64,000 nt of DNA from Vairimorpha necatrix (lineage: Eukaryota), in NCBI GenBank assembly GCA_036630325.1, contig CP142728.1, positions 744,001-808,000 on the forward strand, written 5' to 3'. Below the pieces are notes generated by a model, which was not told the DNA's origin, did not search any database, and saw only the letters and a program-made list of their open reading frames with translations. The translations under genes and the position numbers were made by a program. Numbering within the stretch: the first letter of the stretch is position 1; every line of letters starts with the position of its first letter. Below, piece after piece: positions 24,194-55,066 of this stretch.

Positions 24194-24446
24194 TGAGGTA
24201 AACACTGGGCATTTTTCCAAGTTTAAAATATGTTTCTAAATAGGTTTTATTATAGGGTTCTTTGGCTATTATTGGCCTTTATTTGTCCAGAAATGTCATA
24301 GCTTTGCTTATGATTTCTTTTCTCGTAGCTCATGTCAAGCTTTTCAAAAATATTTATAAAAAATAAAATTCTGGAAAATCTTTTTTTTTTTCTAGAAAAG
24401 TTTTTATAGGATAAAATGATTTTATTGACATGTGGATAATACCACA
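24194..24446 (-). mobile_element. Solo LTR of the 27639-31754 family
   Basis: Diverged full-length LTR copy starting TGTGGTATTATCCACA on the minus strand; exact 5-bp TSD GTATA. Confidence 0.9.
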
Positions 24447-27380: not shown

Positions 27381-27440
27381 AAACAAGTGCGTTTATTTAT
27401 TTAAAAAAGATTTAACTTAGACAGGGCTTTCTGAAAGGAG

Positions 27441-27620
27441 GGGTCAACGCCTGCACGGGATGCAAATCCTAGCGGTCAACGCCTGCACGGTGTTGCATTT
27501 ACTAGGGGTCAATGCTTGCACGGGATGAAAATCCTAAGGGTCAACTCCTGCACGGGGTTGCATTTACTAGGGGTCAATGCTTGCACAAGCTGGAAATCCT
27601 AGGGGGTCAACGCTCGCGCG
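27441..27620. repeat. Subterminal tandem array of five ~32-33-bp units plus the TIR
   Basis: GGGTCAA(C/T)GC(C/T)TGCAC core followed alternately by ..AAATCCTA and ..GCATTTACTA; the same core occurs at 25852-25880. Confidence 0.9.
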
Positions 27621-27638
27621 CCAAATTATAAAGGTTTC

Positions 27639-30600
27639 TGTGGTATTATCCACATCTCAAGAAAATCATTTTTTCTGATAAAAACTTTTTCTAGAAAAAA
27701 TGAATTTTCTAGAATTTTATTTTTTATAAATATTTATTTTTGAAAAGAAGGGCATGAGCTACGAGAAGAGGAGTCATAGGCAAAGCTATGACAGGTCAAA
27801 ACTTAACAAAGACCGATACAGGCCAGAAGAGCCTTTAATAAAAAATTATTTAGAAATGTATTTTAAACTGGGCAAAGTCCCCAGTAATAACGTCAAGTTG
27901 AATTCAACGAGGTTAAACATTAACAGTAACCCAGGAAACATTAAAGAAGATGGGTATACTGAATTCGAAAAGAATATTATTGATAACACTATTAAGTGTA
28001 AAGAAAAAATCTTAAAAATATATGATATAAAGACTCAGCTCACTCTTAAGCAGTTAGATAAATTTGAAGAATTGGGAAAGGCTAACAAATGGACAGATGA
28101 ACAAATGGCCATAATTTACTTATCATGTATCTACGATGAAAGAAAAGAAACTCTTACAAGTAATTCGTATTTAGTTCTTAGAAAAAGGATTTTAGATATA
28201 ATTTATCCGCCTGAGCGGAAGAGACAATGCATCAGGGATTTAGATGCTATAAATCAATCTAATTATACTACCATTAAAGATTATGAGGAGATTATAGGAG
28301 AAAGACTTTTAGCATATAGCTATTACAATAGTCTCACTAAGAAGAAGACCCAAAATAAAAAAGAAGAATTATTTTTAAAAGGATTGGGCGATTTTACGCA
28401 TTTGGAATTAACGCGTTTAAATATGATTAATCGACCCATAATTGAAATTTATGAATATCTAATTCAAGTTGAAAACGAATTAGTAATAAACATGAGTCAA
28501 AAGCCAGATCAAATGATTCGAAACTACAACTCAATAACTGGTAAATTGAATGAGAAGAAATGGTGTAGTTTTCATAAGAGTAACATTTCCCACGATACGA
28601 AACATTGCTACTTGCAAAAAAATAAAAATAATCAAAGACAAGAAAGTAATTATAAACCTGACAAAAATATGATTATTAAATTAAGAAAAAAAATAATTGA
28701 AGATGTTATAGTTGAAGGTACTATAAATAACCAAAAAGTAGATATTCTAGTAGACAGCGGATCAAAAAATAATTACATTAATAAAGAAGAAGTGAATCGA
28801 CTGAAATTACAAGTCGTCGAAGGCAAAAGGCTAAAAACAATCTTTGGAAACAATACAACCTTAGAATGCGATAAAAAGGTTAATGTAGAATTATTTTAAA
28901 AGATAGGGCCTTTAACACTAGCTTTTACGTATTAGAACAGGCTCCTGTTAACTTCATCCTGGGCAACGATTTCTTATACAATGTTAACGCGAAGGTTGAC
29001 TATCAAGCAGGAGTGGTAGAAATAGATAAAATATTATTGGAAATTCAAGGAATGGAGGAAGAAGCTGGAGAACGACTAGATAAATAATTAGAAAATAAGT
29101 CATGCATTGTTAGCGAAGATGAAAAGTTAAATAAATTTGTTGAACTCTACAAGCAAAATAACAAAAGGTTTAAATACTTGGAAGGAGAATTTGCATCCTT
29201 TAATATAAAAGAAAATATCCCTGTAATTAAAAGAAAGGCATACACTGTTCCCTTTCAATATATAAATAAGGCAAAGGAAGAAATTAAAAGACTTGTAAAA
29301 GAAGATATTATAGAGAAAAGTTTTTCAAATACAGTTAGTCCTGCATTCTTTATAGAAAAGAAGAATAAAGATCTTAGGCTGGTGGTAGATTACAGAGAAG
29401 TTAATAAAGCTATAGAAGATGACCCTTGGATACTACCAAATATTGATAATTGCTTAATTAACATGGGGGAAAATGAATATTTTTCACAATTAGACCTTAG
29501 TAATGGGTTTAATCAAATAAGAATTGATGAAAAAAGCAAAGAGATTACATCGTTTTTCCTATTAGGACAGCAGTGGCAGTATAACAGAATTTCATTTGGA
29601 ATCAAGCCCGGTCCCAAACTATTTCAAAGGTATATATAAAACATTTTAGGTAATATAGATAATGTATTTGTTTTTATCGATGACATAATCATATATAATT
29701 TGACGAAGTCTGATCATATTGAAACCGTACATATGGTGTTAAAGAGATTATATGATAAAGGAATACAAATCAACTTTGAAAAATCAAAAATTTTCCAGAA
29801 AGAAATAGAACTATAGGATATAGAGTTAACAATAAAGGCATTTTCCCTAAGACGAGTTATTTAGAAAACTCGATTTTTAATAAAGAAATAAAAACAAAGC
29901 GAGATTTGCAGAAATTACTTGGAGTATTAAATTGGTACAGGAGATTTATACCAGACATGTCTAGAAAAATTAGCAGCATTACAAACATGTTGTCAAATAA
30001 AAATAAAGCGATAAAAATTAATTCAAATATGAAGAATGAAATAAATAAGATTAAAATGTGGATTAAAGAAAAACATCATCTAAGTTTTCCAGACTACTCA
30101 AAAAGGTTTATGCTAGAAAGCGATGCTAGCGATATAGGGATGGGAAGTGTACTTACACAAGAAGGAAAGGTAATCAGATACTTTAGTAAGAAATTTTCAG
30201 GTTCAGAATTAAATTACACAATCGTAGAAAAGGAGTTCTTAGCAATCATACTATCATTACTTGAATTTAAAAATATCATACAAGGTTCTCATGTGGAAGT
30301 ATTAACGGACAGTAAAAATTGTATCTATGAAAATAAAGCCTCAAGTTCAAGGATTAGCAGGTGGAAGTTGCTGTTAAACGAATTCTGTCATACAATCAAA
30401 CATGTAAATGGAAAGGAGAACTGTTTGGCAGATCAACTATCTAGAAATCAAGCGTCACTTTTACATCAAAATGAAGAAAACGCAGTCAATACAACAAACA
30501 TTATAAAAGAATGTTGTCTCTATAAAAAAAATGGATCATTTTTAACAGATCAAAACAACAGGATCATTATAAAAAAGAAAAAGGTAGAGAGGTTTTTAGA

Positions 30601-31754
30601 ATTTATGCACAAGTATAGTGAACATAGAGGAAGTAGCACGCTATATTACAACCTAAAGAATTATTATTATATAAGTGGGTTGTTTAAAAGAATAATAAAT
30701 ATAACAAAGAAATGTAACACATGTGGTGTGTTCAAAGGTAATAACTATTTAAGATATGAAAAAAGTAAAATGATAGCGACGGAAAAATTTGAGAAGATTA
30801 GTACGGATATATATGGACCGTTTAATTTAGATAATTTCATAACTTCTGGTAGAAAAGAGGTAGGATATATCCTAACAATTACGGATATATATTCGAGGTT
30901 TACTCGATTATATTTTTTATACACAGTAAAATCAGAGTCAGTAATTCAAGCTCTAGAAAATTGGATAGAAACGTACGGCAAGCCAAAAACTTTAATATCA
31001 GACAATGGGCGCCAATACATAAGCAAGCAAACTAGAGAATTCTTAGCTGAACAACAGATTACACATACCTTAATACCTACATATACCCCTAGTTCTAATG
31101 GTATATCAGAAGCTATCAACAAGACAATTACATTTGTGTTGAGTATAAATAAAGGTAAAGAAATTAGACTCGCTCTTGCAAACGCAGAAAATGCGATAAA
31201 CCGAAATTATAATAGGAATATAGGCAAATCACCATTCTCCATCATAAACGAATATGATGAATACGATCCTATGCGAAGACCAATATCATATAAATATCCT
31301 TATAGTGCGACCACTTTACAGTTAGCTAAAGTGGGAGAATTCTGCCGAGAACGCTTATTTAATCCTGATAAGCTTGGATATAAATTTACAAAATTACGAA
31401 GAATCGAAGCGGTTAGTAAGAAAGGATATTGGGTCAGGGTAAAGGGGAATATAGGTTGGAGCCACATCAAAAATCTAAAGTTCTAGGAGAGGCAGACTGT
31501 GGTATTATCCACATATCAAGAAAATCATTTTTTCTGATAAAAACTTTTTCTAGAAAAAATGAATTTTCTAGAATTTTATTTTTTATAAATATTTATTTTT
31601 GAAAAGAAGGGCATGAGCTACGAGAAGAGGAGTCATAAGCAAAGCTATGACAGGTCAAAACTTAACAAAGACCGATACAGGCCAGGTGAGCCTTTAATAA
31701 AAAATTATTTAGAAATGTATTTTAAACTGGGCAAAGTCCCCAGTAATAACGTCA
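27639..31754 (+). mobile_element. Full-length Ty3/gypsy LTR retrotransposon (palindromic-PBS type)
   Basis: 257-bp LTRs (27639-27895 and 31498-31754, TG..CA, 4 mismatches by eye), exact TSD GTTTC, purine-rich tract AGGAGAGGCAGAC before the 3' LTR. Confidence 0.97.
27754..31486 (+). CDS. Gag-Pol polyprotein, broken by three frameshifts (about 28897, 29638, 29820)
   Basis: WCSFHKSNISHDTKHC, LVDSGS protease, LRLVVDYR and FIDD RT, ESDAS RNase H, and integrase TDIYGP / ISDNG / NGISE. Confidence 0.9.
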
Positions 31755-32012
31755 GTTTCTTTTTGTCATTTTAGGGCATTTTTAAAAAAATAAAAATCAT
31801 AAATTTTTGCTTTTCTCTGTTTTGCGCCCCATTATTTTAAGGGGGGGGGGGGCAGCAAAACAGAGAAGCTCCTATTATTGTATATCTCTATTCCTCTGTT
31901 AACCCTTTCAGTAGGTAAATTTCCCTTTTTTTTATAAATTAAGTCTTGTAAAGTACGATTAAACCTTTCTTCACACCCATTTGGCTGGTGATGGAAAGGT
32001 GTGGTATAATGT

Positions 32013-35000
32013 TGTTGGGATAAAAACATGGGTTTATTTATTATAAAATATTTAAAGAAACACGGTGTCAAATATATCAAAACAAGTACACTATATATTT
32101 GACACGTGTAGCACTTCCTACACTACCCCTCCTTTAAAAGTTTAACATGATTTCGACACGCCGTAACTATTTTCCCACTGTCCAATAAAACTTTAAATGA
32201 ATGAAATTTTTGTTCTACAACTACTCCTTTTTCTTCCCATTTAGGTTCTAGTTTTCCTCTTATAGGGAGAATTAAATAGTACCAGACTCTATCTCCTACC
32301 TTTATGGTGTCCTTACTATCAGCATTCTCTTTCCCACTCGTGTTATATTCACGTCTGTAGGCTTCTAAATTTTTAATGGCCTGTTCCTGATACTCTTCCT
32401 TTTCTTTTGAGGTCTTAATCCCTTCCTGTAGGTCCATATTATTAAGTGTCATTCCTGTGATAAGTTCTACTGGAGCGCAGCCTATAGCCCTATGGTACGA
32501 CTGCATATAAGCCTTGACCAATTTGGGAACGCATCTCGCCCAATCAAATTTCCCAAATTCAGTAATTTTCCTTAACTTAGAACCTATTGTTCTATTAAAT
32601 CTCTCCACAAGCCCCGTGGTCGTAGGTTTATAGGGGGAACCATATTTCCAGATAAAGTTCTTAACCTTTGCATATTCATCACAAATTTTATTTTTGAACT
32701 CTTTGCCATTATCAGTTAGAATGGCCTTCGGTACACCATGTTTCCCGACTATATGTTTATCAATCAAATGAACAACCGTATTCATATCCTTTGTATAAAT
32801 TGGCACAACTTCTGCAATTTTTGAGAAATGGTCAATCATTATCACTAAATACTTATATCCTTGCTCACTCTCCTTCAGAGGGCCTACCATGTCCAATTCC
32901 CAGATCTCTCCTAATTTATTAGCCACCACCGGTATAATATCCTTAATTTTTTCTGTGGTTTTTCCTTTTGACAAACTTCACAATTTTCAATATAGTCTTC
33001 TATGTCTCTATTCATATGCTTCCATGAGTATTTTTGTCCGATATTATACTTCATGTTCTGTTTTGATCCATGACCTAATAAATCATGATAAAACCTCAGT
33101 AATGCCAATGTTCTCTCTTTTTTAATAATTTTCTTTTGTACTAAATTTATTTGATGCACCTTTTCTTCTTCCCTTTTAAATTCTCTGCTTAGGTGATCTG
33201 TATGATTCGAAGGTCCTGTTATATATTCAATATCAAAGTCATATTCTTGTAAAATCAACGACCATCTAGCCAACCTGGCTTTAACATTTCTAGACTTGAA
33301 CAGTTATTTCAGAGCTTGATGATCAGTTTTTAATGTGAACTTGCCCAATAATAAATATTCTCTGAAATGTTGGATGGATTTTATAACCGCCAATAGTTCT
33401 TGTTCCGTCGCGGAGTAATTCTTTTCTGTCTTCGAGTGTAAGGAGCTGTAATAAGAAACAATCTTTTCTTTTCCTCCAATTATTTGTGCCAATGTGGCAC
33501 CACATCCCTCGTTTGATGCATCTGTAGTCAAAATGAACTTATCCTTCAAATTTGGGATAGTCAACAAGGCCGTTCTCTTCATGGCCTGTTTTACCTCTTC
33601 AATATCCTTACGATATTTAGCATTTTGTTCCACATTTTATCAAAAACAATCTGCTTCCTCATCCTTGAGCCTGATTATGTCAAATAGTGGGCTAACCACC
33701 CTGTGGCTGTTTTTTATGAATTTAGCACATTAATTATACAGTCCCAACAAAGATTGTAATTTCTTCTTACTTTTAGGAATGGGTAACTGTTGAATGCTCC
33801 TAACTCTTTCTTCGTCTACACCTATTCCCTCTTTTGATATTACATGACCTAAAATTTTTAATTCAGTCTTATTAAATTCGTATTTATCCTTATTAAGTTT
33901 AAGCCCTACCGACTTGAGCTTTTCTAATACCATTTGAACATCTCTCTTATGATCTTCTCTAGTTTTACTATATATGAGTATATCATCCATGTATACTACA
34001 ACAAACTTAAATAAAAATTCCCTTAATATGTTATTCATCCCCCGCTGAAATGTAGCTGGGCCATTAACAAGTCCAAATGGCATTTTCGTAAATTCAAATA
34101 AGCCTTCTCTACAGGCGAAAGCTGTCTTCTCAATATCACATGGCGCCATATCTATTTGGTGATAGCCCGATTCAGCATCTAATTTAGTGAAGTAAGTTGC
34201 ACCCTCTAAAGCATTGATAAACTCTTCTACGGGGGGCATTGGATAAGCGTCTCTGATGGTCGCATCATTTAATCTTCTATAATCCACGTATAACCTATGA
34301 TCTCCATTCTTTTTTGGGACTATAATTATCGGACTTCGCCATGCGCTTACACTGGGTCTAACTATTCCAAGTTTTAGATTTATCTTATACTTATCAAGTA
34401 ACCCTTGTCCTATTATGCAGGGAATTGTGATATCCCTAGTAATAATGAATCTATCTTCAAAAATCATCCCTTCAATTTTAATATTGATTACTGTTTCCCC
34501 AATGATCTTTATTTTCGATCCATTGGCTGCTCTAAGCTGTTGTTTCGAACGATTAACAACGGTTTTCTTTGGCAAAAGCTCTGGCCTAATTAAATTTATA
34601 TCGGCTCCTGTATCGATGAGCACTTTAAAATTGACTTCTGCATCATTTAGTGACGCTTTCTTTAGCGTAGTCCTATTATCCTTTAATTTGGTAACGGAGT
34701 AATTGTAAATAAATAACTTTGAATCTGTCTTCTTGGTTTCTCCTTCTTCTTTCTCTTGACCTTTCTTAGCTTCTCTTTCATCTCTACGGAAGCTATTGAA
34801 TTTACACTTTGACACAATATGGCCTTTCTTTCCGCAAATAAAACACTCATTTTTAAGTCCTCTCGGGAGTCAAATTCTTTTTATCGTGATCCCTGAAGCT
34901 AGTCGCCTTGACATTCATATAACCTCCATGCAAAAATTCTGTATAACGTACCTCATCCATTGCGGTAACATTCCTTAAGGCCTTATATATGCACTCCCAA

Positions 35001-35544
35001 GATAATGAGTTCTTCTTGTTTATTAAAACCGCGTTTGCTAAATAATCTGGAATTCCTTTCAGTACAAAGGCAATCAATATGCCTTCTGGAACATTCCCTT
35101 TACGCGCCAATCCCGCCATCTTATCTAGATAGTTGGCGAGAGATCCACCATGATATTGAAGGGCGGAAAGTTTATCTATACTCACTTTCATCGCCATGGA
35201 CCCACAAATCTTTCTTGGAACAAGGCTTTCAGTCTTTCAAGTGAAAGACCAATTGGCTGCGCTATTAGCCAATCCCTCGCCTCATCCTTTAACGACATTC
35301 TAAAAAGGAGTGCAAGTTTACTCTCACTGTACTCCATCAGCCTCCCCACATCCTGCAAGTCCTCCAAGAACTGCTGTGGATCATCTTTCTCTTCATTTCT
35401 GAAAATGAGAAAGTTCCTGACGTTGTCGCCAAATTGTTGGGATAAAAACATGGGTTTATTTATTATAAAATATTTAAAGAAACACGGTGTCAAATATATC
35501 AAAACAAGTACACTATATATTTGACACGTGTAGCACTTCCTATA
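32013..35544 (-). mobile_element. Ty3/gypsy LTR retrotransposon with tRNA-Ser-like PBS
   Basis: 110-bp LTRs (32013-32122 and 35435-35544, 1 mismatch), TSD AATGT, PBS TGGCGACAACGTCAGG, PPT AAAGGAGGGG. Motifs CFICGKKGHIVSKC, IDTGA, YMDD, TTDAS and LTDNG. Several frameshifts. Confidence 0.96.
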
Positions 35545-37717
35545 AATGTAATTCTTTTTTAAATGCTTGACAATACATTCAACCTTACTACTGAGATTTT
35601 ATTTCGATTGATCCTGGATCAATGTCTTCAATGGCATAAAAGAACTTATTTCTTTTAAAAATTTAACTATATTTTCATCTTTTCTCTTATTTATCATTTA
35701 AGCAAATCCTTTTCTCGTAAAATAATCAATCCCAGTTATAATGTATTGTGTGTTTATTGGACCTATTATATCTATAGCAATTTTTTCTCCCTTTGCATAC
35801 GAGGTAACAAATATGTGTTGTTTAGATTTTTTAGAATTGTACTCGTTGCATGTTTCACACGAATCTATAATTTTTTTAATCAATTTCTGTAAATTTTTAA
35901 ATAAAACTTCTCTTATACATCTCATATATTACTGAATGTATCCTATAGTGAAGTAACTCATTATGAATTTCTCGGATCGTCTAAAGCATTTTTTCTTTGT
36001 CTATTTCTTCACATTGATTTATCGATCCTTTGTGTAAATTGAATCTCTTGTCGTTTGTTGCCAACCCAGAATTTCGACTCAGGCAATCCACGTGAGGAAT
36101 TTCTTTACCTCGTCTATATGTAATTCCACAATTAAACTATGACATTGTATCTAGCCATTTTTGTATTCCTAGATACTTGATCTCTCCCCTAATTAAAGCT
36201 TCTAACGATTTATGATCTGTGATAATTTCAAAATGTGTACTGTATAAAAAATATCAAAAGTGTAACATTGCCCATAATAAGGCTAGACATTCCTTTTCGC
36301 TAATACTATATTTAATCTCATTATCTAAAAGACTTCTCGATGCAAATGAATTGGTTTTTCATCTTTATCAAAGTTTTGCGAGAGTAATGCAGCTATAACT
36401 CAATAAAAGCGTCGGTCTCAAGTTTGCATTCTTATGACCAATCTGGCTGAAATAGTCCGACTGTATTAATAAAAATCCTTTTAACTTCTTTAAAAGCGTT
36501 CTCTTCTATATTCGTCCATTTAAACTCTTTCCTATTTTTCAATAATTCATGCAAAGGACCACATACTATTGAACAGTTCTTAATGAATTTTCTATGATAA
36601 TTTATTGCACCTAAAAAATCTTAAACCTGTTTTTTGTCCTTTAATGGTTATAAATCCTTAACAGCTTGCATCTTATTTATGTGCGGAATAATGATATTGT
36701 GTTTAATTTTGTATCCAAGGAATATAACTTCAGATTGCTTAAATACACACTTTTCCTCATTGATTTTGAGGCCATTTTCGTGTAAAACTTTTCGAATTCT
36801 ATCATATGATTCGTCATGCTCTTTTACTGCTTTTCCAAACATTAAAATATCATCTACGTAACAGAAACAACTTTTACCAATTTCATCTCTTAAAACTTTA
36901 TTCATTTTCGTTTTAATATCGCCGGAGCATTCTTAAACCCCATTGGTATTACTTCCCACTCATATAATTTATGTTTATATCATAATACCGGTTTATATCT
37001 ATCTTTTGGTGACAAAAGAATTTGAAAAAATCCGTCCTTCATATCCAATTTAAAAAATACTGCCATGTCTTTAAATTACAATGGATTTCATCTATTCTTG
37101 GCAAAGAATAATTATCATGTTCTACCAATTTATTAAGTGCTATTAAATTGGTTGTAACCCTTAAAGTGCCGCAAGGCTTTACCACGGGTCTCAAAATACT
37201 AACCCACGTTGATTTTATGTTTTTTATATATCCCTTATGTAATAATTTATTCATTGCAATTTCAATTCCTACTTCCGATTTTTTTTTCCGGTAAATTATA
37301 TATCTTCTTGATCACTTTTGAACCTTCAGGTGTTTTGATTTCACATGTATAACACAGTTTCTCAACATTATTAAGTCTAATTAATGTTTCTCTTCCTGTT
37401 GTAGACTGTATTTCTACAACATTTATTTTATTTCACTCCCTGTCAAATCTATCATTGAATTTTCTAGAATTTTATTTGCTATAAATAAAATTCTAGAAAG
37501 GAAGGGTACAGTAAGATGATGGAGAGACGAACACAAGGAGTGTTTGGACATAGCGATAAAAGAGCTATCAGAGAGTCCAAAGGGACATTTGAAATCAAAA
37601 GTAAATACATTAATTCTATTTTAGAGTGGTACTTTATCGCCGGGAGAGCTTCCCCGGGATACCACACTTCCAAACAGGATTTTTTCAGTTCGTACTTTTG
37701 GCAATATATAAAACTTC

Positions 37718-41900: not shown

Positions 41901-44900
41901 TCACACCACCATCCCAGCATTTTATTGGACAGTGTTAACCATTAGTCTTTATTACTTTCGGTCGCGTATGTTACAGAATACGATAGAATAGGGCTCGTGG
42001 GTGACTTTTGCTCCACGTCGTTAAATATAAAGGTTAGCTTTTGAAACATAACCCAGATGCACCTGCCATAGTCCATACTAGAACATTCATTGCAGATATT
42101 TTTATGTATTGATACGTTATCACAAGCGTGATGTGGTTTTCGGCCATAAAATGTTTTTTAACACATGATTATTATCTTTTATGTCTATTAAAAAAAATTA
42201 AAATTGTTTATTGTAAAAAAGACAGAATCAGCAAAACGAATAAAAGCCTCTAAGCCACAAAATCCCACCAATAAAGAAAAAATCATCAAAAATTGCGTTT
42301 ACACGCCAGCATACCTTAACAATTTCGCTCGTAGGAGAAAAGTTTGTTTATATAGGATACATCCTTAGTCATAATATGACCAGAGGCCCCCTTTTATGAG
42401 TCTGATGAAAAACGAAAACACCTGGATCAATACACCATTTAAGAACACGACTCAGTTCAGTGGAACAATACAGCATCAGTATCATGCCCGACCTCTCCCA
42501 GGTCAAATCTAATTAATTACAAGTCATGTTGTTAATAAATCAAACACCCTTTCTTCTATTTCTAGATCTTAGTTTTTTTTTAATTATTCTATATTAATTA
42601 TCTTGTTTTGCTATATATTTAAGTTTGATATTAAATATGATTTTCCATGAGACAACCATCTTGTCTTAGTAATCTATAATATCACAGAGTTCTTTTATCT
42701 TATCTGGGTTGTTTTTTAATCCGATTTTATTACCGAGAAGTAGTTTAGTTTTTTCTTGGACATTTGTTTTTGAACAAGTCAGTAAAGGCAGTTTATTTTC
42801 AAAAGATGTTCTAATGTCAGTTAACTAGACGCACTCTAGCAGAAAGTGTTCTAAATTTTCTTGTGGTCCATCACACAAAAAGCATTTATTTCTATAACTC
42901 ATTGGTATTCTTTTTGAATTGGCTATTGCTGAAACACCTTACGAGAATACATCTCAATCTAGTATATGTTCTAATGTTTCTATTATTTATTTTGTTCATG
43001 ACATATTTTATTTGTAAATTTCTTATGTCATATTGGTTTGCTATTGATGCAGCTAAAGAAGTATTTAGAGTTTTTCGAATTCTTAGTACATCAATTATTT
43101 TTGTAGTGATAAATCTACTATCACTTGATTCATATTCGTTGCCGACGAATTGTTTAAACCATCTTTGTTTTCTTGAATACCAAGTAGTTTTTCTTTCTTT
43201 CGGATTGATTAAAATTATATCCGATATGATTGTCTTATTGTGTTTCCTAAAAAAAAAAAAACTAAAAAACTTTTATTGTTATTAAAGAAAAGCCACCCAG
43301 CAAATAAAAACTTCAACAGCCAATAACTTGTGATACACACCAGCATACCATAAAGGCCTTGCTTGTAGGAGAAAAAATATCCCTTAGGATTAGAACCACA
43401 AACATTCCTGTCTGTGACCTGCGTTCAGCAGGGTTCTAAGAGAATAACACGTCTGACCTACTCGTCAGTTAAGAACCTAACTAGTTCAACGTAAATGCTA
43501 CGGCACCAGCAGCTTGCCATACCTCCCCCAGGTAAAAGTGTGTTTTTTTTCTTCTAGATTTCTCTAGATCTGTTCTGGCTTACAAGCCTCTCCTTTATTC
43601 GTATAACGATATATCGTTGTACAATCATCTTGTCTAAGAACTCTACTCTTACAAGTAGAGACTTTTTTTTTATCAAAAGAAGCTTTGATGCCATTGATGT
43701 TACCAATAATCATCTTAACTAGCTCCTCTTTTGTTTGAGTTGAAGATCTCAACTCAGATATTTTATTCTCATATAGAGATCTTGTGTTAGAGAGCGTCGG
43801 ACAGTCTAACAAGAAGTGTTCAAGGTCTTCTCGTTCTCCCTCACATAAGAAACAATGAGTCCTATAAAAAGGAGGGATTCTGTTGGCAATAGCCAAAGCA
43901 GAAGACCATCTGACTAAATTACACCGAAGCCTGGTGTAATTCCTGATCTGCCTGTTGTTTACTTTTGATAGTATGTGCTTAATCTGCGAGTCACAGATTC
44001 CATACTTATCTGCTACTAGAGCACCTAAGGTGGTGTTGTAGGAACCCCTTGCCTTAAGTACCTCTAAAATCTTGTTCTTGTCTATAATGTAGGCAATGCT
44101 TTCATAATCGTTCCCGATATATCTCTTACACCAACGTCTAGTCCTCGAACTCCTCGTTGTTTTCCTTTCCCTCGGAGGTTGGTTAATAAATTCCGAGATA
44201 ATGGTTTTATTGTGTTTCCACTTCCTTAATGCCCTAAATCTACTTAGGGCCGCCTGTATGTGAACTCTATTCTACAAAGTTCGTCCATTATCCTATCTAA
44301 TGGCACTATCTTGGTTCGAAATTTCATTCGGATCGCTTTTCTTAGGATTCTATTGATCCCACCAGACCTTATACTAGACATCCCCCATAATTCACTTCCG
44401 TACATTAGTGGGAAAAAACACATTTTTTATTAATATACCTTTAAAAGCTATATTGATTCCTTTATTTAGAAGCTTTGGTTTTAAGACTTCTAAAGCTTTT
44501 TTGCCTCTGAAGGCTCCATCTCTTACTAGGTGTTCTTCTAAAGTAGATCTTTTTATAAGAACACCCAAATACCTGTATTCGGCGACTTCACCGATTTTTC
44601 CAAAGTCAGTCCTGATAGCGACATCTACAGACTCGGATATATTACTGGCATCCCATACTAAGATACCACTTTTGTCACAGTTGATCTCCATACGATTCTC
44701 AACTGCCCATCTGCTGACTTGACATACTTTGTGTTTCAAATCAGCAAGAGTAATGCCTAGAACTACGATGTCATCTGCAAACATCCGTCCGGGCAGGCTT
44801 ATATTTGAGCGAGGAACGCTCAATCCTGTCATGCCGTCAAAAATATCATTTATGAATAGATTGAACAGCGTAGGAGAACAGGGGCACCCCTGTCTCACAC

Positions 44901-46084
44901 CTTTTTTGTAGAGATATCCACTACTTGTGTCTCCGATATACGGATTCTCATCTTAGTATTTCCATAGATATCTTTCAATGTGTTTATAGGATATCTTGGA
45001 ATACTATACCTTTCTAGCTTATTAAATAGTAGCTCATGGCTAACATTGTCGTAAGCTTTTTCAAAGTCAATAAAACATAGAAATGTTTGTTGACTTCGAA
45101 ATTCTCTTCTTTTAACCACCTCCAGCAAGGTTGCAATCTGATTCATACATTCTTCTCCTGCTCTAAATCCGGCTTGGAAAGGAGAAAGAATGTTCTTTTC
45201 TTCAACAAACTGTGTAAGTCTGTCGTTTACTATTTTTAAGTAAATTTTGCTTATTGTGTTAATTAGCGCAATTCCTCTATAGTTGTTGAGATCTGACACA
45301 TCTCCTTTTTTATGGAGGCAAATCATGTCAGCAGCACTCCAGCTAACAGGAGGGCTGTCTCCTGTTAGTATTCTGTTGAACTCGATCACAAGGAACAGAG
45401 GTAGTTTTTTATCTACTAAACTAGGTTTAAGTAGTATCTTGTATAGCTTGGTTGGAATCTCATCCGGCCCAGCTGCCTTGTTGTTGACACAGTTATTAGT
45501 GGCTCTCAGTAAATCCTCCATAGTGATGTTCTCTGGAGTATCCCTTTCGATATTTTTTTGATAGACATTTTCAACGTCTGAAATTGAGTTAGCTAGATTA
45601 GCGTAAAAGTCATTGGCTATCTCTAACTTCTTTTTATGCTCGTTATGAGCCATGCCTGATACATCTTTCAAACAAACATTGTATAATCTAACAGTAACGT
45701 TAGAAGAACTTTTCAACCATTTCCAGAAGTCTCTGGATCTGTTACTTTTATAGAGCTCAATGCCCTTGAAGGCCCAAAGTTTGGCTCGATCTTTCCGAAC
45801 TTTTATCTTTGTTGCCTTAATTTTATCCTTCAGTAACATGTACCTATGCACATACGTTACGGACCTATTCGTTAGCATACGCTTAGTAGCATATCTAAAA
45901 CTTTTAAAGACATTTACGTGTCTCCATCTGATGGGCAGCCCTTTGAATGTCCCCACTTTACTGTATATCTTGGAGGATATACAAACGTCTTTTAAAACTC
46001 TAGAGAGTTCATCTAGTGTGAATGTTTTTTCATTCAACTTTCTTGAAAGCTTAGCTTCCATTCCTGGATGCTCAAGTTTCTTCC

Positions 46085-46927
46085 GGGTGAAGGATACTTT
46101 AGACCCCACCCCCCCCCTTTGAAGCGCTTCAATTTTTTTTTCGAACCCCAAAATTGAAGTGCAAAAAAAAAGAGGAGCAAGAAAGGGACAAAAATTTCTT
46201 ATCACTTTAAACATTAAAAATAACAAATAAATATATGCTTTTATACAAAAATTAATTTTAGATTTAGTTATAATAATCATTTGAAGTATTGTGTCTTTTT
46301 TCGCCCTTCTTATTTTTTCAATTTTTTTTAATTGTTGGTTTATTATTAAAGTAGATTTTTGAAGAAAATCTACTTTAATAATAAACCAACAATTAAAATT
46401 ATAAATATTATTTATAAAAGAAAATTTAAATAAATGTTCAACGATCTACACATATTGTTAAATCAAAAAATTTAATTTAAATATGTTAAGTTATAAAGAA
46501 TTATATAGTTTTATGGTTATAATCTTTTTTTAAATTAAATTTCGTATACAAATATATATTTATTTGGTATTTTTACTGTTTGAAGATGCAAGTAATTTGA
46601 GTACTAATGATTGCTTCTCCTTTATTTTGCACTTCGTTTTTGGGGTTCAAAATTATAAAGTGAACACTCTCAGAGGGGAGCGTTTTTGTCCCCAATTCTA
46701 AAAAATCAGAAGGGCAAAATTAGCTTATTGGTTTATATTATTGTAAAAACTTGTATTAAAATATAATTGTGTACATAAATATATATTTATTTTGTATTTT
46801 TAATGTTTAAAGTGATAAGAAATTTTTGTCCCTTTCTTGCTCCTCTTTTTTTTTGCACTTCAATTTTGGGGTTCGAAAAAAAAATTGAAGCGCTTCAAAG
46901 GGGGGGGGTCTAAAGTACCCCACCTCC
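46085..46927. mobile_element. Mutator-like non-autonomous element (MITE) inside ORF2
   Basis: About 150-bp TIRs and an exact 9-bp TSD GTTTCTTCC (46076-46084 and 46928-46936). Removing it restores ..VYNRKKLEH.. in ORF2. Confidence 0.9.
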
Positions 46928-49482
46928 GTTTCTTCCTATTGTAGACAAATGGCCGTTCTCTCACTGGAGAAGGAAGAGATGATCACTTACCGTCCATCTT
47001 CGAGAGATTGTTACTTTCTCGTTGTCCTGAATTAAGACCCTAAATATCGTATCAATACGTCTTTTAGAGACTTGTCCATCACTCAGGATTCTTGTCCCTG
47101 GTAATTATGTTATAGTTTATTGCGGGGCTTAACCCTGCGATAGCAAGCTTCTTTTTGAGGGAAGAATCACTAGTATTCATATCCCCCATCACTACAATCT
47201 CCTTGTAGTTTCTTTTATCCTTCTCAATACTAAGAAGGTTAATTACTTTACTTAGAGTTTCGGCCTTTAACTCTCTCTCTTGTGGAACGTAAACATTGAT
47301 TATTAAGACCTTTGTCCATCCTGTACTAGTTTTGAATTCAACGACAGTTTGTAGAATATTGTCGTCATCCCCCTTTTTGGAACATCTTACTGCCCCGTCT
47401 TTTCTGACTAGAGTCATTAGACCCGGCCGATTCTTTCCTATGGCTGGTGTCTCCACCACCATATACTTTTCTAGTCTCGTAGAACCTGAGGATTTCATCC
47501 AAGTTTCTTGAAGACACAAGACTGTTGGCTTTTCTACTTTAAGGAGGATTTCCAAGTCCTCCTTCTTTCCGTAGAAATGGGTGATGTTAAGACTATAGAG
47601 CTTGGCCTTCTCTGTGGACTTGCATCTTCTTTTATTCTCCACCCTATCACGAGTTACAATTTCTTTTAATATTTCTAGGCCAAGTATATCCATGGCTTCA
47701 GAAATTTCTTTTTTTCTTGACCTTCTGACTACGCAGAAGGTGAAGTTAGCATCTTTTCTGCGATGCTTTCTGGTATAGATAAGAGAGTCCGAAATCCCGT
47801 TGACACTCTGTCTAACTGTTGTCGGAGTTCTTCTCTATTGATATGGTTGGCCATTGTTTTAACTAGACACAACCCCTTTTGAATGCTTGTTCTCGGCATT
47901 CTAGCTTTTACCATGATATAGACATGAGATTTAAATCTCAGTTTACATCCATTACTTTTATTAGTAAAGTTACTAACTTTTGGTGAATTGTTGGGTAGAC
48001 AATTAATTTTGGTACAGCTAAGAAGCAGTATAACTTGTTTTTTATTAAAATATATATTATTTAATAAAAATCTTTTAATAACAGCATTTTTAAAACTGTT
48101 CATTGTGATTTTTACTATCAACTTTCCTGTCTTTCCCGAGATGTTCAAAGTTTAACTCGGATAGAAAGAACTCTTCATGGCTTACTGTAGGCTTGTCAGA
48201 TAGACCGTTTTTTATAACTTTTACTGCCTTATCGACAGGCACATACTTCCTCCAATTTTGACGAAGATCGGAGAATATTTTCGTCAAAGCTGATCAGTTC
48301 CTAGAGATATAATTGCCTACTTCGTTTTCGGCAACTAATACTCTTACATTTTTGGAAGCGTTCTCAAGAGCTTCTGCAGCTTGAAAGTAGAATTCATCTC
48401 TAATGAGAAAGATTCTACCCTCGCCTTCAATATCTTTTACTAGGGGAATGTTCTTTTCCTCTATGCCTATTCTTTTGGCCCAGGTCTCCCTAATGATGTA
48501 TTCTCCTCGGGGGAAACCATAAGCGACTACAATTTTGTATTTGCAGTCCTTGAGCCTCTTTCCGTTGATTGCTAGGTCTAGCAACTCTTATCTGGATAGC
48601 TTATCTGACCAATTCGGCTGTTTCTTCCTCGATGTGTGAGGAGGAGGACCTTAAGCGAAGAAGTTTTCTTCATCTTGGATTTGCGCTCAGTCATAAATTT
48701 CGACTTCGCACAACCTTTTATAGATGACAGTAACAAATCATCTTTCAGTATTTTTTTACAAGTTTTAGAACTTGAAGCGGGTACTTTCAACTGTTTCGTA
48801 TCACAGTTGAAGTTCTTTTTTATACCTTCTAGGAATGGGGTAAACCTATTGGCATCTGCTGTTTTTGAAGTTTTTAAGGCATCAGCTTTTTTTGAAACCT
48901 TTGGTTCTATATCACAATTTTTAAGAATGATTGTCCAGTCATTCTCCGTCTTTTCTGTTAGAAGAATATTTTTCTTCAACAATTTCCTGTTTCCTTTTAC
49001 GGCGGCGGTTACCTTCCGTAAAAACACATTAATGGTATTGGATGATGGGATCCTTTTACCCGTAACCTTTATTTGCTCTATATCTTGAGCTTTAGAGAAG
49101 ACACCAAACTTCTCCTTTTCCTTTTTTTGATCAGTACGATCAGCATTTTTTGTGATTGGTTCTTCACACTCTCCTTTTTTGCAGTGAGAATCATGTCAAT
49201 TCTCTGCTCTAATCTTTCGTTTGAAGCCTTTAGGGCATCAATTTGTGTGTTGGGTTGGTTTCTCATTACAATAATCTCAATCTCATGCTGCTTCTTCAAG
49301 TTTTTATGCTTGAATCTCTGTTCATTGAGCTCTTCACAGATGGTATCTAAGTACTCCTGATGAATACTTGTCACTCCATGTGAACTCTTACAATAGGAAA
49401 CAAGGCTAGCCATCAGCCCAGCTCTCCCACAGTACCTTTGGTTGGCATTTCTGCCTTCTTCTATCTTTATTCTGTTGAATAA

Positions 49483-49959: not shown

Positions 49960-50215
49960 TGAGGTTATCACTGGGTATTTTGCCCAGTTTAAAATACATT
50001 TCTAACAATTTTTCATTTGAGGCTCTTCTGGCCTGTATTGGTCTTTGTTTAGTTTCGACCTGTCATCGCTTTACTTATGACTTCTCTTCTCGTAGCTCAT
50101 ACCCTTCTTTTCTTAAATAAATATTTATAAAAAATAAAAACCTAGAAAATTCATTTTTCCTAGAAAAAGTTTTTATAAGAAAAAATGATTTTCTTGAAAT
50201 GTGGATAATACCACA
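49960..50215 (-). mobile_element. Solo LTR of the 27639-31754 family
   Basis: Full-length diverged copy; TSD cacat / catat (4 of 5). Confidence 0.88.
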
Positions 50216-50969
50216 CATATACATGTGGTATCCCAGGAAAACCCTCCCGGATATAAAGTAATATCCTAAAATACTTTTAATAAATTGTTTTTTATTCATA
50301 ACTGTCCTTCTGGACTCTCTGCCATACTGTTCTTTCATTCTCTGTTCCATCTCCTTTTTACGTACCCTTCCTTTTTCTGGAAATTTATTTACAATAAATA
50401 TTTTATATGAAAATTCAATGATAGTTTTGACAAGGAGGGAAATAAGATAAATGTTGAAGACTAACAGTCTACAACAATACAACTAAAAAATCTGCAGACT
50501 AAAATTTTTGTTATTATTACTATTTCTTCAGAAGGACTGTTTTGAGGGGAATGGTTATTTTAAAAGGCCTTAAAAAACCGCCAAATGCTTTGTGCAAAAT
50601 AATCTTTTTGTAGCTACATCTGATCGAGAAACATGGATCAAAATTTGATGTTATTATGGATTCGAGCATGTTTAAACAAATATGGGTCATTTGAAAATAA
50701 AAAAAACTTCTTATTCTTGACAACTATAAATCTCATTATACTGAAAAAGTTATGAAAAGTTTTGCTAGTAATAACATTGATACCTTTTTAATTCACCTAA
50801 AGACTACATCTTATTTACAACCATTAGATGTTTTAATAAATTCTTCATTTAAGGTTGAATTAAAAAGAAAATGGCAGGAATGGCTTGCAAACGGCCCAAA
50901 GGAATATACAAATAAAGGTTATAGGCGTAGATCGAACTGGGGATATATTTTGAATTCAATGAAGGATGC

Positions 50970-53900
50970 TGTCGTACCTCCTGCGGAAGTACAACTCCAA
51001 TAAAGATAAGTTTTGAGTAAATAGTTTATTTCTCTTATCTTCCATACCCCTAAGTATGGAATTTTCTTTTATAGTTTTTTTTTGTTTGTTTACCGGGTAA
51101 ACAAATCAAGAAATGTCAAAAATGATATGTTTGACATGTGGGATACCACATCCTACCCTCTTCTTTTAATGTCCTTTATGTGGATCCAGTTGCCTCCTTC
51201 TTCTACTTTAACCCAGTTTCCTTTCTTCCCAACCTCTTTGATCGTACAGGGTCCTTTATATTGTTCATCCATTTTCCCAGCTTTGAAATCTCTTACAAAT
51301 ACTTTATCATTTATTTTTAATTTTTTATCGTTATTCTGGTTCAGTGTGGCTGGAACTGATTTGTATTTTGGTTCCTTTAGGTGGCTTTGTCGTCTGAATG
51401 GGTCAAAAAAGCTGTATTGTTTCTCTAATTCGAATGGAGAACATCCAATAGTTCTTTTGTAATTTACGTTAAGTTTAATGTTAATTTTATTTGTTATGTC
51501 GTTGATGTTATTTAGCTTGTTTATCCTTAGACATTCAGCTATTATACTGTTTTGCCTTTCTGCCATTCCGTTGCTTTGTGGATGGTATATTGGAGTGTTA
51601 ACGAGTTTAATTCCTCTACTTTTCTCATATTTTTCTCTGAGTTTTTCTCCGGTAAATTGTGTGCCATTGTCCATGATAATTTTTTCTGGCTGTTGAAATT
51701 CTTGTATCCATTTATCTATACATTTTAATATTGTACCTTCCGTTATGTTATATAGAAGGTATACCCTTGAAATTCTTGAGTAAACGTCTGTTATGCAAAG
51801 GTAATAAGCCTTATAATGGATTGTATCATGTTCAAAATTTTCAAGTTCAAATGGTCCAAATATGTCCATGGCTATTGTTCCGTAAATTTTATCAGATTCG
51901 ATCTGTAATTTCTGAGTTTTGACTTTCTCTTTCTTATTTAAGTTACACATTCTGCAATTTTTTGTTATTGCTATTATTTTGTTCTTTAATCCAATTATGT
52001 TGTAGAAAGGAGAGAGATTCTTGTTTAATACTACGATTCCTGGGTGGCCGGCTAGTTCATGTATTTTCGTTAGAAAATTTTCTGCTTCGGTGTTTTTGAT
52101 CATTATTTTGTCATCTTTATTTCTTTCCCAGTTTTCCTTTCCGGATTTATCGTCTGATATTTTTTCTACATATTGTTCTATTATATTCGTAAGGTTATTT
52201 CCATGTCTGACATTTTCTATTTTAAAACATCTTGATAGGTAGTCAGCTACTGAGTTATTCTCTCCTGCGATTTGTTTTATGCAGTAATTGTGCTCTATCA
52301 TCATCGCATCCCATCTTTTTATTTTTCTGCTTATTTTGCTTTTAAATAGACAATTCCTGTTATCTGTATAGATTTCGACGTAATTTCCGAGTACTATGTT
52401 TCTGCACTTATCCATCGCGTATACTATTGCAAAGTATTCTTTTTCCACTATTGTATAATTTCTTTCAGTTTTATTAAATTTCATGCTTATATTTAAAATT
52501 ATTCCGTGTTCTTGTGATAGTACTGCGCCCATTCCTAGTTCAGAGGCGTCGCAATGTAGTGTAAATTTTTTACTGTAGTCTGGCAGTACTAGATGGCTAT
52601 TGTTCTTTAGTGTACTTACTAATTTGTTTATTATTAGATTGTCTTCTTTTGTTAGCTTGACTTTTTTTTCGTTTCCTTTTAGCTTTTCGGTTAAGCTTAG
52701 AATTTCTAGACTTAAGTTTGGAATGTATTTTCTGTACCAATTAAATATACCAATTATTTTTTGCAGGTCTTTTTTAGTGTGGCATTTCATGTTTTCTGTT
52801 AGTTTACAGTCTTTCGTGAGAGGGTACATTTTTCCGTTAAAAATTCTTGTTCCTAGGATTTCGGTGTCCTTTGTGCAAAACTCTGATTTTGCGAAATTTA
52901 CATTTACATTGTAATGTTTCAATCTTGTGAACAGTTCTTTAAGCGTATTGAGGTGTGATTCGTAGTCCTTTGTGGCAATTATTATGTCGTCTATATATAC
53001 TGAAATGTTATTTATCCCGAAAAGTATTTTGTTCATGATTTTCTGAAAAGCTTTTGGTCCATTTTTTAATCCAAAAGGAAGTCTTTTGTACCTGAATGTT
53101 TTACCAAATATCGAAAATGCTGTCCATTTTCTGCTATCTTTTGCTAGGAGTAATTGATTAAACCCGTTTGTCAAGTCTAATTTGCTTATTACTTCGCTTT
53201 TACCAAGTTGATAAATAATATCGTCCATTTTGGGTATTATTTCCACTTCATCTTCAACAAAGTTATTTATTTCTCTATAGTCTACTATTAATCTCATTTT
53301 CCCATTTTTCTTTTTCTTAAAAAATGCGGGACTTGTGTATCTTTCATTACATTCTTCTATTATGTCAGCGGTTATAAGTCGTTGTATTTCGGCTATTGCA
53401 TCTTCTTTAAAGTTTGATGGTACGGCATAGTTAATTTTCTTACATTTTATGTCGTTGTTTGAAACTTGTAATTTAACGTGATCTGTGTTTATAGGACAAT
53501 TTTCTTTGATTTCTCTTTTATAATTATCTATAATTTCCCTAAGTCTTTCTTCTTCCTTAGTGATAAGTATTTTTCCTGGGGTTTTTTCGAATTCTGTTTC
53601 TTCTGCATTTGTTTTCATATTTACGGTTGCGTTGTTCCAGATTATTTTCTTTCTTGTAAAATCTAATATAATATCGTTTCTCGATATGAAATCTCTACCA
53701 AGTATAATATTGACTGGTAGGTTTTTTAATAAGTAAAATTCAATCTTGCATGTCTCGTTTTGATCCTTTAATTTTAAGTCGAGTTCTATTGTAGTGTTAG
53801 TTTTTTCACTAGATTTATTACCGAACATTACCTGGATCTCTTTGTTTTCTCTAGTGGTGATGTTCCATTGTTCTACGAGGTCTGCTTTAATAAAGTTTAA

Positions 53901-55066
53901 TCCTGCTCCGCAGTCTATAGTTCCTGTTGACTCGTGTTTTGTGTTGATTATGAGTGGGATATCGAGTTGTTCGACAATGGTAGGATTTTCTAAAATAACA
54001 TAGTTTAAAGAGTTTTTATTTTCCCTGGGCTCTGAAGTCTTTCTCGTTGTATTCTTTAAATTTTGATTGGTATCGGGAACTACTGTCTTTTTGTAGTTGT
54101 TGAATTTTTCGTGTTTTACTTTGCTCATATTCGATCGATTTGTTTCATTGCTTTGCCCGCAGTCTCTCGTTGTATGTCCCAAAGTTTTGTGGACTTTACA
54201 CCATTTTTTCATGAATCTTATACCTGAGGTGTTATTTAGCTTTCTCGGTATGTTAAATCTTGTTATTATGTTTTCTTCAATTCTTTTTAGAGCTGGTATG
54301 ATTTCGGGTAGTGTTTCGAAGTTTTGTTCCTCGAGATATCTTACTGTTTCTAAGCCTAGTCCTCTGTATAGAGATTCCTTTGATCTTCGTTCATATTCTT
54401 TCATGCTACAGTTGGATACTTTACTGTAGATAGTTAATCGATTCATGATTTCGTTTACATAGTCGTCGAAGAAGATGTGGTCAGTCTGTTTGAGATTACT
54501 CAGTTCTGCTATTAAGTTCTCGACCCTTTTCTGTGAAAATACTTTGGACATGATGTATTTTTTGTTCTCTTCATAGTCATCTTTCAATTTGGTTTTATCT
54601 ATAATCTGATCTTCTATAAGATCGTATAAAAAGAGCCTTTTAGTTTCTTCATTCCATTGGTTCCTTTGGAAAATTTCTTCGATCTTTTTGAACCATCCTA
54701 GTAGATCGATTTCGAATATGTCGTTGATCAGTTCTACATTCTTAGTGATTCCTAGATCCACTTCACCTGTCTTAATTCTTATGGTGACTACTTTTGTTTC
54801 TTGAATTTTGGAGTTGTGCCCTGCGATTTCTCTTCCTCGCGTGGGTGGGAGTTCATTATATTTGTACTCTCTTATTGAATTCAATATGTCGTACCTCCTG
54901 CGGAAGTACAACTCCAATAAAGATAAGTTTTGAGTAAATAGTTTATTTCTCTTATCTTCCATACCCCTAAGTATGGAATTTTCTTTTATAGTTTTTTTTG
55001 TTTGTTTACCGGGTAAACAAATCAAGAAATGTCAAAAATGATATGTTTGACATGTGGGATACCACA
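50970..55066 (-). mobile_element. Intact Ty3/gypsy LTR retrotransposon (palindromic-PBS type)
   Basis: LTRs 50970-51150 and 54887-55066 are identical except for one T in a homopolymer; exact TSD GATGC; PPT AAAAGAAGAGGGTAGGA. Confidence 0.98.
51153..54962 (-). CDS. Single uninterrupted Gag-Pol polyprotein (1269 aa from the first ATG)
   Basis: First ATG at 54962 (MEDK), preceded by GGGG. Motifs WCKVHKTLGHTTRDC, IDCGA, YIDD, HCDAS, HELAGH..CRMC, MDIFGP / MDNG / NGMAE and a GPC C-terminal module. Confidence 0.95.
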   Translation of the reverse strand: MEDKRNKLFTQNLSLLELYFRRRYDILNSIREYKYNELPPTRGREIAGHNSKIQETKVVTIRIKTGEVDLGITKNVELINDIFEIDLLGWFKKIEEIFQRNQWNEETKRLFLYDLIEDQIIDKTKLKDDYEENKKYIMSKVFSQKRVENLIAELSNLKQTDHIFFDDYVNEIMNRLTIYSKVSNCSMKEYERRSKESLYRGLGLETVRYLEEQNFETLPEIIPALKRIEENIITRFNIPRKLNNTSGIRFMKKWCKVHKTLGHTTRDCGQSNETNRSNMSKVKHEKFNNYKKTVVPDTNQNLKNTTRKTSEPRENKNSLNYVILENPTIVEQLDIPLIINTKHESTGTIDCGAGLNFIKADLVEQWNITTRENKEIQVMFGNKSSEKTNTTIELDLKLKDQNETCKIEFYLLKNLPVNIILGRDFISRNDIILDFTRKKIIWNNATVNMKTNAEETEFEKTPGKILITKEEERLREIIDNYKREIKENCPINTDHVKLQVSNNDIKCKKINYAVPSNFKEDAIAEIQRLITADIIEECNERYTSPAFFKKKKNGKMRLIVDYREINNFVEDEVEIIPKMDDIIYQLGKSEVISKLDLTNGFNQLLLAKDSRKWTAFSIFGKTFRYKRLPFGLKNGPKAFQKIMNKILFGINNISVYIDDIIIATKDYESHLNTLKELFTRLKHYNVNVNFAKSEFCTKDTEILGTRIFNGKMYPLTKDCKLTENMKCHTKKDLQKIIGIFNWYRKYIPNLSLEILSLTEKLKGNEKKVKLTKEDNLIINKLVSTLKNNSHLVLPDYSKKFTLHCDASELGMGAVLSQEHGIILNISMKFNKTERNYTIVEKEYFAIVYAMDKCRNIVLGNYVEIYTDNRNCLFKSKISRKIKRWDAMMIEHNYCIKQIAGENNSVADYLSRCFKIENVRHGNNLTNIIEQYVEKISDDKSGKENWERNKDDKIMIKNTEAENFLTKIHELAGHPGIVVLNKNLSPFYNIIGLKNKIIAITKNCRMCNLNKKEKVKTQKLQIESDKIYGTIAMDIFGPFELENFEHDTIHYKAYYLCITDVYSRISRVYLLYNITEGTILKCIDKWIQEFQQPEKIIMDNGTQFTGEKLREKYEKSRGIKLVNTPIYHPQSNGMAERQNSIIAECLRINKLNNINDITNKINIKLNVNYKRTIGCSPFELEKQYSFFDPFRRQSHLKEPKYKSVPATLNQNNDKKLKINDKVFVRDFKAGKMDEQYKGPCTIKEVGKKGNWVKVEEGGNWIHIKDIKRRG

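Follow-up and report, generated by a model that had tools for sequence, protein, structure and literature searches.

A 64,000-nt stretch of the Vairimorpha necatrix genome (contig CP142728.1, positions 744,001 to 808,000 of the forward strand; hereafter the window) contains two divergent Ty3/gypsy-type long terminal repeat (LTR) retrotransposons, elements A and B, with a perfect palindrome of 12 or 14 nt just inside the 5' LTR, the place where a tRNA primer-binding site is usual for this group. Selection almost certainly keeps this site self-complementary for pairing between two molecules. There is a somewhat better than even chance that the palindrome is itself the primer-binding site, and that the element's own RNA serves as primer in trans. 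The window is AT-rich (~30% G+C) and dense in mobile elements; the two in question are made up as follows.

27639-31754, plus strand: element A, Ty3/gypsy-type LTR retrotransposon, with LTRs and target duplication read in the window
27639..27895, plus strand: element A 5' LTR (TG..CA, 257 bp), containing a TATA-like box and the Gag ATG at 27754
27754..28899, plus strand: element A Gag and start of protease, 381 residues (P0002)
27897..27908, plus strand: element A 12-nt perfect palindrome GTTGAATTCAAC, core TTGAATTCAA at 27898-27907, in Gag frame K-L-N-S-T; proposed primer-binding and dimer site
31485..31497, plus strand: element A purine-rich tract AGGAGAGGCAGAC, resembling a polypurine tract and adjoining the 3' LTR (read directly)
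31498..31754, plus strand: element A 3' LTR (TG..CA ends, 257 bp)
50970-55066, minus strand: element B, Ty3/gypsy-type LTR retrotransposon of only 4.1 kb
54887..55066, minus strand: element B 5' LTR (TG..CA, 180 bp), containing a TATA-like box and the polyprotein ATG at 54962
54873..54886, minus strand: element B 14-nt perfect palindrome TATTGAATTCAATA, core TTGAATTCAA at 54875-54884, in frame D-I-L-N-S-I
51153..54962, minus strand: element B Gag-protease-reverse transcriptase-RNase H-integrase polyprotein, 1269 residues, uninterrupted (P0001)
50970..51150, minus strand: element B 3' LTR (181 bp)

Both elements are Ty3/gypsy-type by anatomy and domains. Each has direct TG..CA LTRs and a 5-bp target duplication (GTTTC at 27634-27638 and 31755-31759 for A; GCATC at 55071-55067 and 50969-50965 for B), and P0001 has the Ty3/gypsy order of protease, reverse transcriptase (RT), RNase H, and integrase, with Pfam matches to aspartyl protease (residues 337-428), RVT_1 (550-706), RT_RNaseH (795-888), Integrase_H2C2 (958-1011), and rve (1032-1128). 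Element A is a decayed relative of B, with frame changes and in-frame stops in its pol region (~28900-31486); its two LTRs are 98% identical. The initial annotation of this DNA, made from the letters alone, gave LTR sizes of 257 and 180 bp, which stand, and described the surrounding Gag sequence as not alignable by eye; alignment tools do align it, at ~25% identity (~35% in Pol), with LE.YF and L-N-S in common at the Gag N-termini. In both elements the Gag frame opens at an ATG within the 5' LTR, soon after the TATA-like box, and crosses the LTR end into the palindrome. A and B are part of a large single-polyprotein Ty3/gypsy group in which Gag is read from a start within the 5' LTR on through U5. 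Residues 255-268 of P0001 (54200-54159, minus strand) form a zinc-knuckle-like C-X2-H-X4-H-X4-C, as read from the sequence, and this part of the element B Gag is a likely nucleic-acid chaperone region; a related protein from Nosema granulosis (P0004) has the classical C-X2-C-X4-H-X4-C at the matching place.

At the inner edge of the 5' LTR, the order in element A is ...GTCA (ending at 27895), AG, TTGAATTCAA, C, and in element B ...GACA, TA, TTGAATTCAA, TA, with the 14-nt palindrome touching the CA of the LTR. The target duplications give the LTR edges exactly. The two divergent elements thus share a core 2 nt past the 5' LTR, and the next pair outward differs yet stays complementary (G/C in A, A/T in B), both as first annotated. 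Perfect 12-nt palindromes occur at a background rate of 8.4e-4 per position, so rarely that two at equal offset from two LTR ends are not a matter of chance. The window contains four copies of TTGAATTCAA, where 0.44 are expected; none of 100 shuffles reached four. Under each element's own codon usage, the probability of TTG-AAT-TCA for Leu-Asn-Ser is 0.024 (A) and 0.010 (B); the L-N-S codons are both identical and rare, whereas those of the nearby LE.YF differ between the two. A TGG-type tRNA primer site is absent after the LTR in both A and B, its place being taken by the palindrome, and no tRNA genes were found within the window. A host-tRNA primer site is usual but not obligatory in Ty3/gypsy elements: Tf1 is likewise without one.

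A further exact TTGAATTCAA copy lies in the target DNA at 50950-50959, 10 nt past the 3' LTR of B and 5 nt past its GCATC duplication (50965-50969), where it forms the final codons of a plus-strand frame containing ...TSYLQPLDV..., a motif that we take to be typical of pogo/DDE-type transposases. At the window rate of the decamer, an exact copy so near the element end is unlikely by chance. Tf1 complementary DNA (cDNA) is able to insert at sites homologous to its own primer site (PMC11042837). Element B has a normal duplication and the nearby TTGAATTCAA is not at the junction, so a Tf1-like homologous insertion would not readily account for it.

As the site lies within a reading frame, proteins can stand in for the DNA of relatives. 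A profile built from three Gag regions was run against 1.84 billion representative proteins (E <= 0.001), giving 650 matches; the best 150 of these, plus the three queries, make up the 153 proteins examined. Every named member among the best 150 is microsporidian, from Nosema, Dictyocoela, Pancytospora, or Hepatospora, for example:

Nosema granulosis: KAF9760596.1, KAF9760601.1, KAF9758261.1
Pancytospora epiphaga: KAI5177037.1
Dictyocoela: KAG0420228.1, KAG0441668.1
Hepatospora eriocheir: ORD96395.1

The closest protein relative of element B is P0004, with 32% identity over 99% of the query. By themselves these relatives would make the host very probably a microsporidian, and short leaders with GGG ahead of the ATG agree with that. 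One polyprotein of the microsporidian-type clade, P0131, is filed under an Aeromonas sp. metagenome-assembled genome, on a contig of 4.1 kb; the record is probably a mis-binned eukaryotic contig.

A peptide was counted as compatible if, with any choice of codons, it could be encoded by a codon ending in C, then a codon starting with A, with a 12-nt perfect palindrome running from the third letter of the latter. Away from the N-terminus, 597 of 62296 positions (0.96%) are compatible by this rule. A hidden Markov model (HMM) of the upstream anchor, from which the site columns were excluded, gave a predicted position for the site in 25 proteins, of which 23 are compatible exactly there; in the other two the site is displaced by indels of 3 and 1 residues. 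An iterated, position-specific HMM of the site itself located it in 44 of the 153 proteins, and all 44 are compatible. Shuffling the columns of these 44 sites gave a mean of 16.4 compatible sites (standard deviation 2.77, maximum 27, 5000 shuffles), and sliding the window by 1-20 residues gave 0-2 of 44. Most of the proteins with no located site begin downstream of it; some are too weak against the short HMM. By eye, the expected position is occupied by a compatible peptide in all 35 listed matches whose profile start is at position 21 or less. Back-translation by the rule yields a unique 12-mer for each of A and B, and both agree with the DNA; unique 12-mers are likewise predicted for P0093 (ATTGAGCTCAAT), P0114 (AGTAAATTTACT), P0189 (GTTAAGCTTAAC), and P0224 (TTTGTATACAAA).

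Selection on nucleic-acid symmetry, suggested in the initial annotation with the reservation that there were only two examples, is supported by these counts, and by protein the examples are no longer limited to two. Clade members lacking symmetry at this place, named there as the observation that would speak against it, did not turn up among relatives with a located N-terminus. Further compatible peptides were seen by eye outside the 44 and left uncounted: CNLDPK (P0145), DILTSM (P0180), H[RK]INLS (P0143, P0179, P0198), CKVNLP (P0104), and RIANLL (P0239). A position-free count of compatible N-terminal peptides was dropped as a test; at ~1% per position, a chance match is expected per 100 residues.

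Relatives and their DNA were sought by several further routes. A word-index search with Gag residues 1-330 gave no match in the near-length class, and viral and genome contig collections yielded no contig encoding a relative. Two metagenome matches are not of the clade: one (L001) has 50% GC and an ordinary fungal-type gypsy Gag, and the other (L002) matches in RT only, with no Gag match. When contigs of four sequencing runs (X1-X4) were compared with 27400-32000, X1 and X2 had copies of the A family; X2 record 10, ~11% divergent, spans the site, and position 27911 is affected by a deletion of 1 nt. The stretch just before element A, 27500-27625, consists of short tandem-like repeats (..CTAGGGGTCAATGCTTGCAC..), on which the X2 contigs pile very deep.

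The amino acids at the site are far from constant. Ten types of core tripeptide occur among the 43 sites that could be placed on a Gag tree, each with a palindrome by back-translation:

LNS, 18 sites: TTGAATTCAA
LSS, 6 sites: TTGAGCTCAA
MNS, 5 sites: ATGAATTCAT
LIS, 5 sites: TTGATATCAA
MSS, 3 sites: ATGAGCTCAT
LHA, 2 sites: TTGCATGCAA
LSL, 1 site: TTAAGCTTAA
LNL, 1 site: TTAAATTTAA
VNL, 1 site: GTAAATTTAC
LYT, 1 site: TTGTATACAA

The residues on either side covary with the core by codon letter. After L (TTG/TTA) comes I, K, M, N, R, S, or T, all with codons starting with A (35 of 35 sites); after M (ATG) comes F, L, S, or Y, with codons starting with T (8 of 8); and after V comes L, with a codon starting with C. 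When single classes of residue were shuffled, the mean number of compatible sites fell to 38.0 for the third residue (inner pairs), 31.0 for the following residue (pair 1-10), and 27.3 for the preceding residue (outer pair 0-11), and in none of the three did any of 5000 shuffles reach 44 of 44. These statistics ignore kinship; the representatives are at most 50% identical. Self-complementarity is kept by compensatory change, seen directly in the outer pair of A and B and by back-translation in 44 of 44 sites. An A-starting codon is possible for the residue preceding the core in all 44 (background 47%), as is a C-ending codon for the residue before that (25% of residues are incapable of one), so a CA and 2-nt spacer, as read in A and B, would be consistent with every family. 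In the third-family solo LTRs of the window (see below) the terminal letters are ...TACCACA, likewise in this frame.

A quick Gag tree, made from sequence downstream of the site with the site columns left out, covers 43 of the 44 sequences (one was too short). It shows at least 18 changes of type, a rough figure given the many weakly supported forks, and several sister pairs are of unlike type.

That Leu-Asn-Ser is instead kept for the function of the Gag protein, the palindrome being a by-product or chance, was a caveat from the start: L-N-S is in the same frame in both window copies, and the nearby LE.YF is conserved as protein. The variation among relatives removes the caveat, as the residues of the 44 located sites vary solely in palindrome-encodable combinations. 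The replacements are chemically unlike (LHA, LYT, VNL, MSS) and all palindrome-compatible, the neighbors covary by codon letters rather than by chemistry, and both window copies use rare codons. Conservation for protein function is hardly credible as the explanation.

Nor is it probable, except very faintly, that the primer is a tRNA, half-tRNA, or further small RNA of the host and the symmetry incidental. Priming by tRNA is the rule in LTR elements, and a neighboring, unrelated element in the window, element C, does have a TGG-type site. In A and B, however, TGG is absent, and the site varies among families in the same host genera (TTGAATTCAA; by back-translation also TTGAGCTCAA, TTGATATCAA, TTGCATGCAA, ATGAATTCAT, TTAAATTTAA, GTAAATTTAC, and others); no single host RNA can follow sites that vary in this way and be the primer for all of them.

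The center of the palindrome bears on whether the pairing is within or between molecules. In the 41 sites with S or L as third residue, N (AAT), S (AGC), and I (ATA) are the only residues found in the middle; K, R, and M never occur there, an absence with p of about 1e-8 from composition (K makes up 10.6% of these proteins). Complementarity thus appears to be maintained even between the two central letters. This favors a duplex of two molecules over a hairpin, since a hairpin loop leaves its center free. Computed energies point the same way: -14.0 (A) and -13.4 (B) kcal/mol for the homodimer duplex, against -1.1 (A) and -0.8 (B) for the hairpin. When a single molecule is folded, the palindrome forms only weak pairs within itself; it is not displayed in a separate hairpin loop, and sits at the primer position.

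Hairpins are predicted directly upstream of the palindrome in both elements. In B (54887-54912, minus strand) an 11-bp stem, GUUGUACUUCC/GGAGGUACGAC, ends 1 nt before the palindrome; in A (27868-27886, plus strand) the stem is CUGGG/CCCAG. Both 5' regions are predicted to fold more stably than shuffled sequence (z of -4.3 and -3.5). These hairpins recall the U5-IR stem-loop, a structure named for Tf1 in a title cited by PMC7175516.

Compensatory change that preserves self-complementarity, a duplex far more stable than the hairpin, and structured hairpins just upstream in both 5' regions are all features that would suit a dimer-linkage or packaging signal, like the dimer initiation site of retroviruses, in an element that uses some other primer. 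As a complete account this is unlikely. The palindrome is at the exact primer place, CA plus 2 nt in A and B, and all 44 located sites imply this frame; no TGG-type or other conserved candidate site was found after either LTR; and another primer would need to bind the same variable palindrome. The dimer initiation site of human immunodeficiency virus type 1 is reportedly a 6-nt loop palindrome. Palindromes have also been reported in Ty1 RNA (PMC3592414). The A and B palindromes are like these in symmetry; they differ in occupying the primer site, lying in a coding frame, and measuring at least 12 nt, whereas retroviral dimer sites and the Ty1 palindromes are apart from the primer site, usually in a hairpin loop, in elements primed by tRNA.

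The inner edge of an LTR is set by the start of minus-strand synthesis, that is, by the 3' end of the annealed primer. Because the sequence 1-2 nt past the CA is where this synthesis starts, the primer must pair with the palindrome; because the palindrome is its own complement, the element's own RNA is the only RNA that would always match; and because the LTR offers no fold-back partner for the site (see below), two RNA copies would have to pair. In the mechanism proposed, two genomic RNA copies would pair via the palindrome to form a 12-14 bp RNA:RNA duplex, a step in which the Gag zinc-knuckle region may assist. A cut in one strand at the 3' edge, like that made in its own duplex by the RNase H of Tf1, would then provide a new 3' end to serve as primer for copying U5-R from the partner RNA. 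In this scheme a single contact, independent of host RNA, would bring about both dimer formation and priming. We infer the RNA nature of the duplex, the priming, and the 3'-end cut from sequence, and the cut also by analogy with Tf1.

The palindrome is symmetric in DNA as well, and the symmetry could instead act at that level, through pairing of two identical single-stranded cDNA ends or as a two-fold site on the double-stranded copy, bound by a dimer of a protein such as integrase or a host factor. About half of Tf1 cDNA retains the primer-binding site as single-stranded 3' DNA (PMC11042837), and there is the second TTGAATTCAA in the target, 10 nt from element B. A protein site, however, would be expected to keep its letters rather than swap compensating pairs, and at least ten cores are implied; plus-strand transfer, for its part, requires complementarity between strands, not self-complementarity. 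A role at the DNA level is accordingly quite unlikely.

Several points weigh against priming by the element's own RNA through the palindrome. A and B are the only elements whose actual DNA was read; the codons of the other 42 sites are back-translated, and compatibility is a necessary but not a sufficient sign of a palindrome. The proteins are the best 150 of 650, picked by likeness to three palindrome-bearing seeds, so weaker, palindrome-free relatives could be missed, and 109 of the 153 have no located site. The shuffles ignore relatedness, and the tree is a quick one with many low-support forks. The pairing strand could be DNA; the priming, the cut RNA, and the dimer are all deduced from the letters of the site and its surroundings.

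The wider proposal is that in a clade spanning microsporidian genera the tRNA primer has been replaced by reciprocal self-priming in trans, each packaged RNA being cut and priming the other. This is put forward tentatively, its chances being a little short of even.

Besides priming by tRNA and half-tRNA, the one well-studied alternative, to our knowledge, is the fold-back self-priming of Tf1. Tf1 and Tf2 of Schizosaccharomyces pombe, and the Tf1/sushi type generally, resemble A and B in being Ty3/gypsy-type, in lacking a tRNA site, and in having a primer site by the 5' LTR that matches the element's own RNA; the duplex is 11 bp in Tf1 and would be 12-14 bp in A and B. In Tf1 the 5' end of the transcript folds back onto the site, and a cut in the RNA:RNA duplex is needed (PMC7175516). 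The A and B site, in contrast, pairs with itself, so the partner would be a second molecule.

A fold-back of Tf1 type was considered for A and B and rejected. The best duplex of the 16 nt after the LTR with the element's own LTR has an energy of -5.0 (A) or -5.8 (B) kcal/mol, values equaled or bettered by 98.7% (A) and 54.7% (B) of shuffles, and the longest exact complement is 6 nt. The label "Tf2-6 polyprotein" on P0004 is automatic and no evidence of clade.

Microsporidia-specific Ty3/gypsy groups were described by Parisot et al. in 2014 (PMC4202319); these are likewise compact, with a single Gag-Pol polyprotein and microsporidian hosts. The terms "PBS", "primer", and "palindrom" are absent from the main text of that paper. 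Searches of the open literature, including that on microsporidian LTR elements, gave no account of a primer site that is palindromic or self-complementary; subscription papers and supplements lay outside the search. A and B would represent a variant of self-priming LTR retrotransposon, with a fair chance of having a mechanism of their own.

Primer choice is a defining step of the LTR element life cycle. If priming proceeds as proposed, a freely drifting palindromic primer site would be a third solution to it, joining genome dimerization and the initiation of reverse transcription, steps mostly considered apart, in one host-independent RNA-RNA contact. The sequence of the site would be free to drift as long as it remained palindromic, which would explain how, in hosts whose genomes are reduced, these elements can flourish with no reliance on the sequence of any host RNA. 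The palindrome also offers an annotation mark for the clade, in which LTR finders based on tRNA would call the primer site missing, and each family has a unique 12-mer predictable from its protein.

The window holds a number of other mobile sequences:

32012-35542, minus strand: element C, LTR element with short LTRs (repeats at 32012-32120 and 35434-35542), exact start uncertain
37400-37665, plus strand: solo or truncated LTR
50226-50470, minus strand: solo or truncated LTR
49960-50217, minus strand: solo or truncated LTR
24200-24446, minus strand: solo or truncated LTR
58584-58843, plus strand: solo or truncated LTR
56072-58572: 2.5-kb unit bounded by ~370-bp direct repeats, TGTGGTGCGAG...GTCGTGTGACA
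46100-46180 and 46826-46910: inverted repeats of ~80 nt, ~650 bp apart, each with a 14-nt palindrome TTGAAGCGCTTCAA

Element C is a contrast case to A and B: its TGG-type site, TTTGGCGACAACGTCAGG, comes just after the 5' LTR, with the Gag ATG downstream of it, and its RT is 29% identical to that of B. Two of the five solo or truncated LTRs belong to a third family (TGTAGAC...GGGATACCACA; the coding part resembles P0095) and three are A-like; those at 50226-50470 and 49960-50217 are nearly head to tail. None of the five is followed by internal sequence, hence no primer site is visible in them.

The 2.5-kb unit may be a non-autonomous LTR element. Each of its repeats includes a variable run, either C followed by G or only G, and its sole long frame is at 57147-57815 (minus strand). 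The inverted repeats at 46100-46910 lie between or within two minus-strand frames, 44895-46280 and 47079-47693, the latter (...CLQETW...) presumably similar to a non-LTR retrotransposon endonuclease; taken together, this has the look of a small inserted inverted-repeat element.

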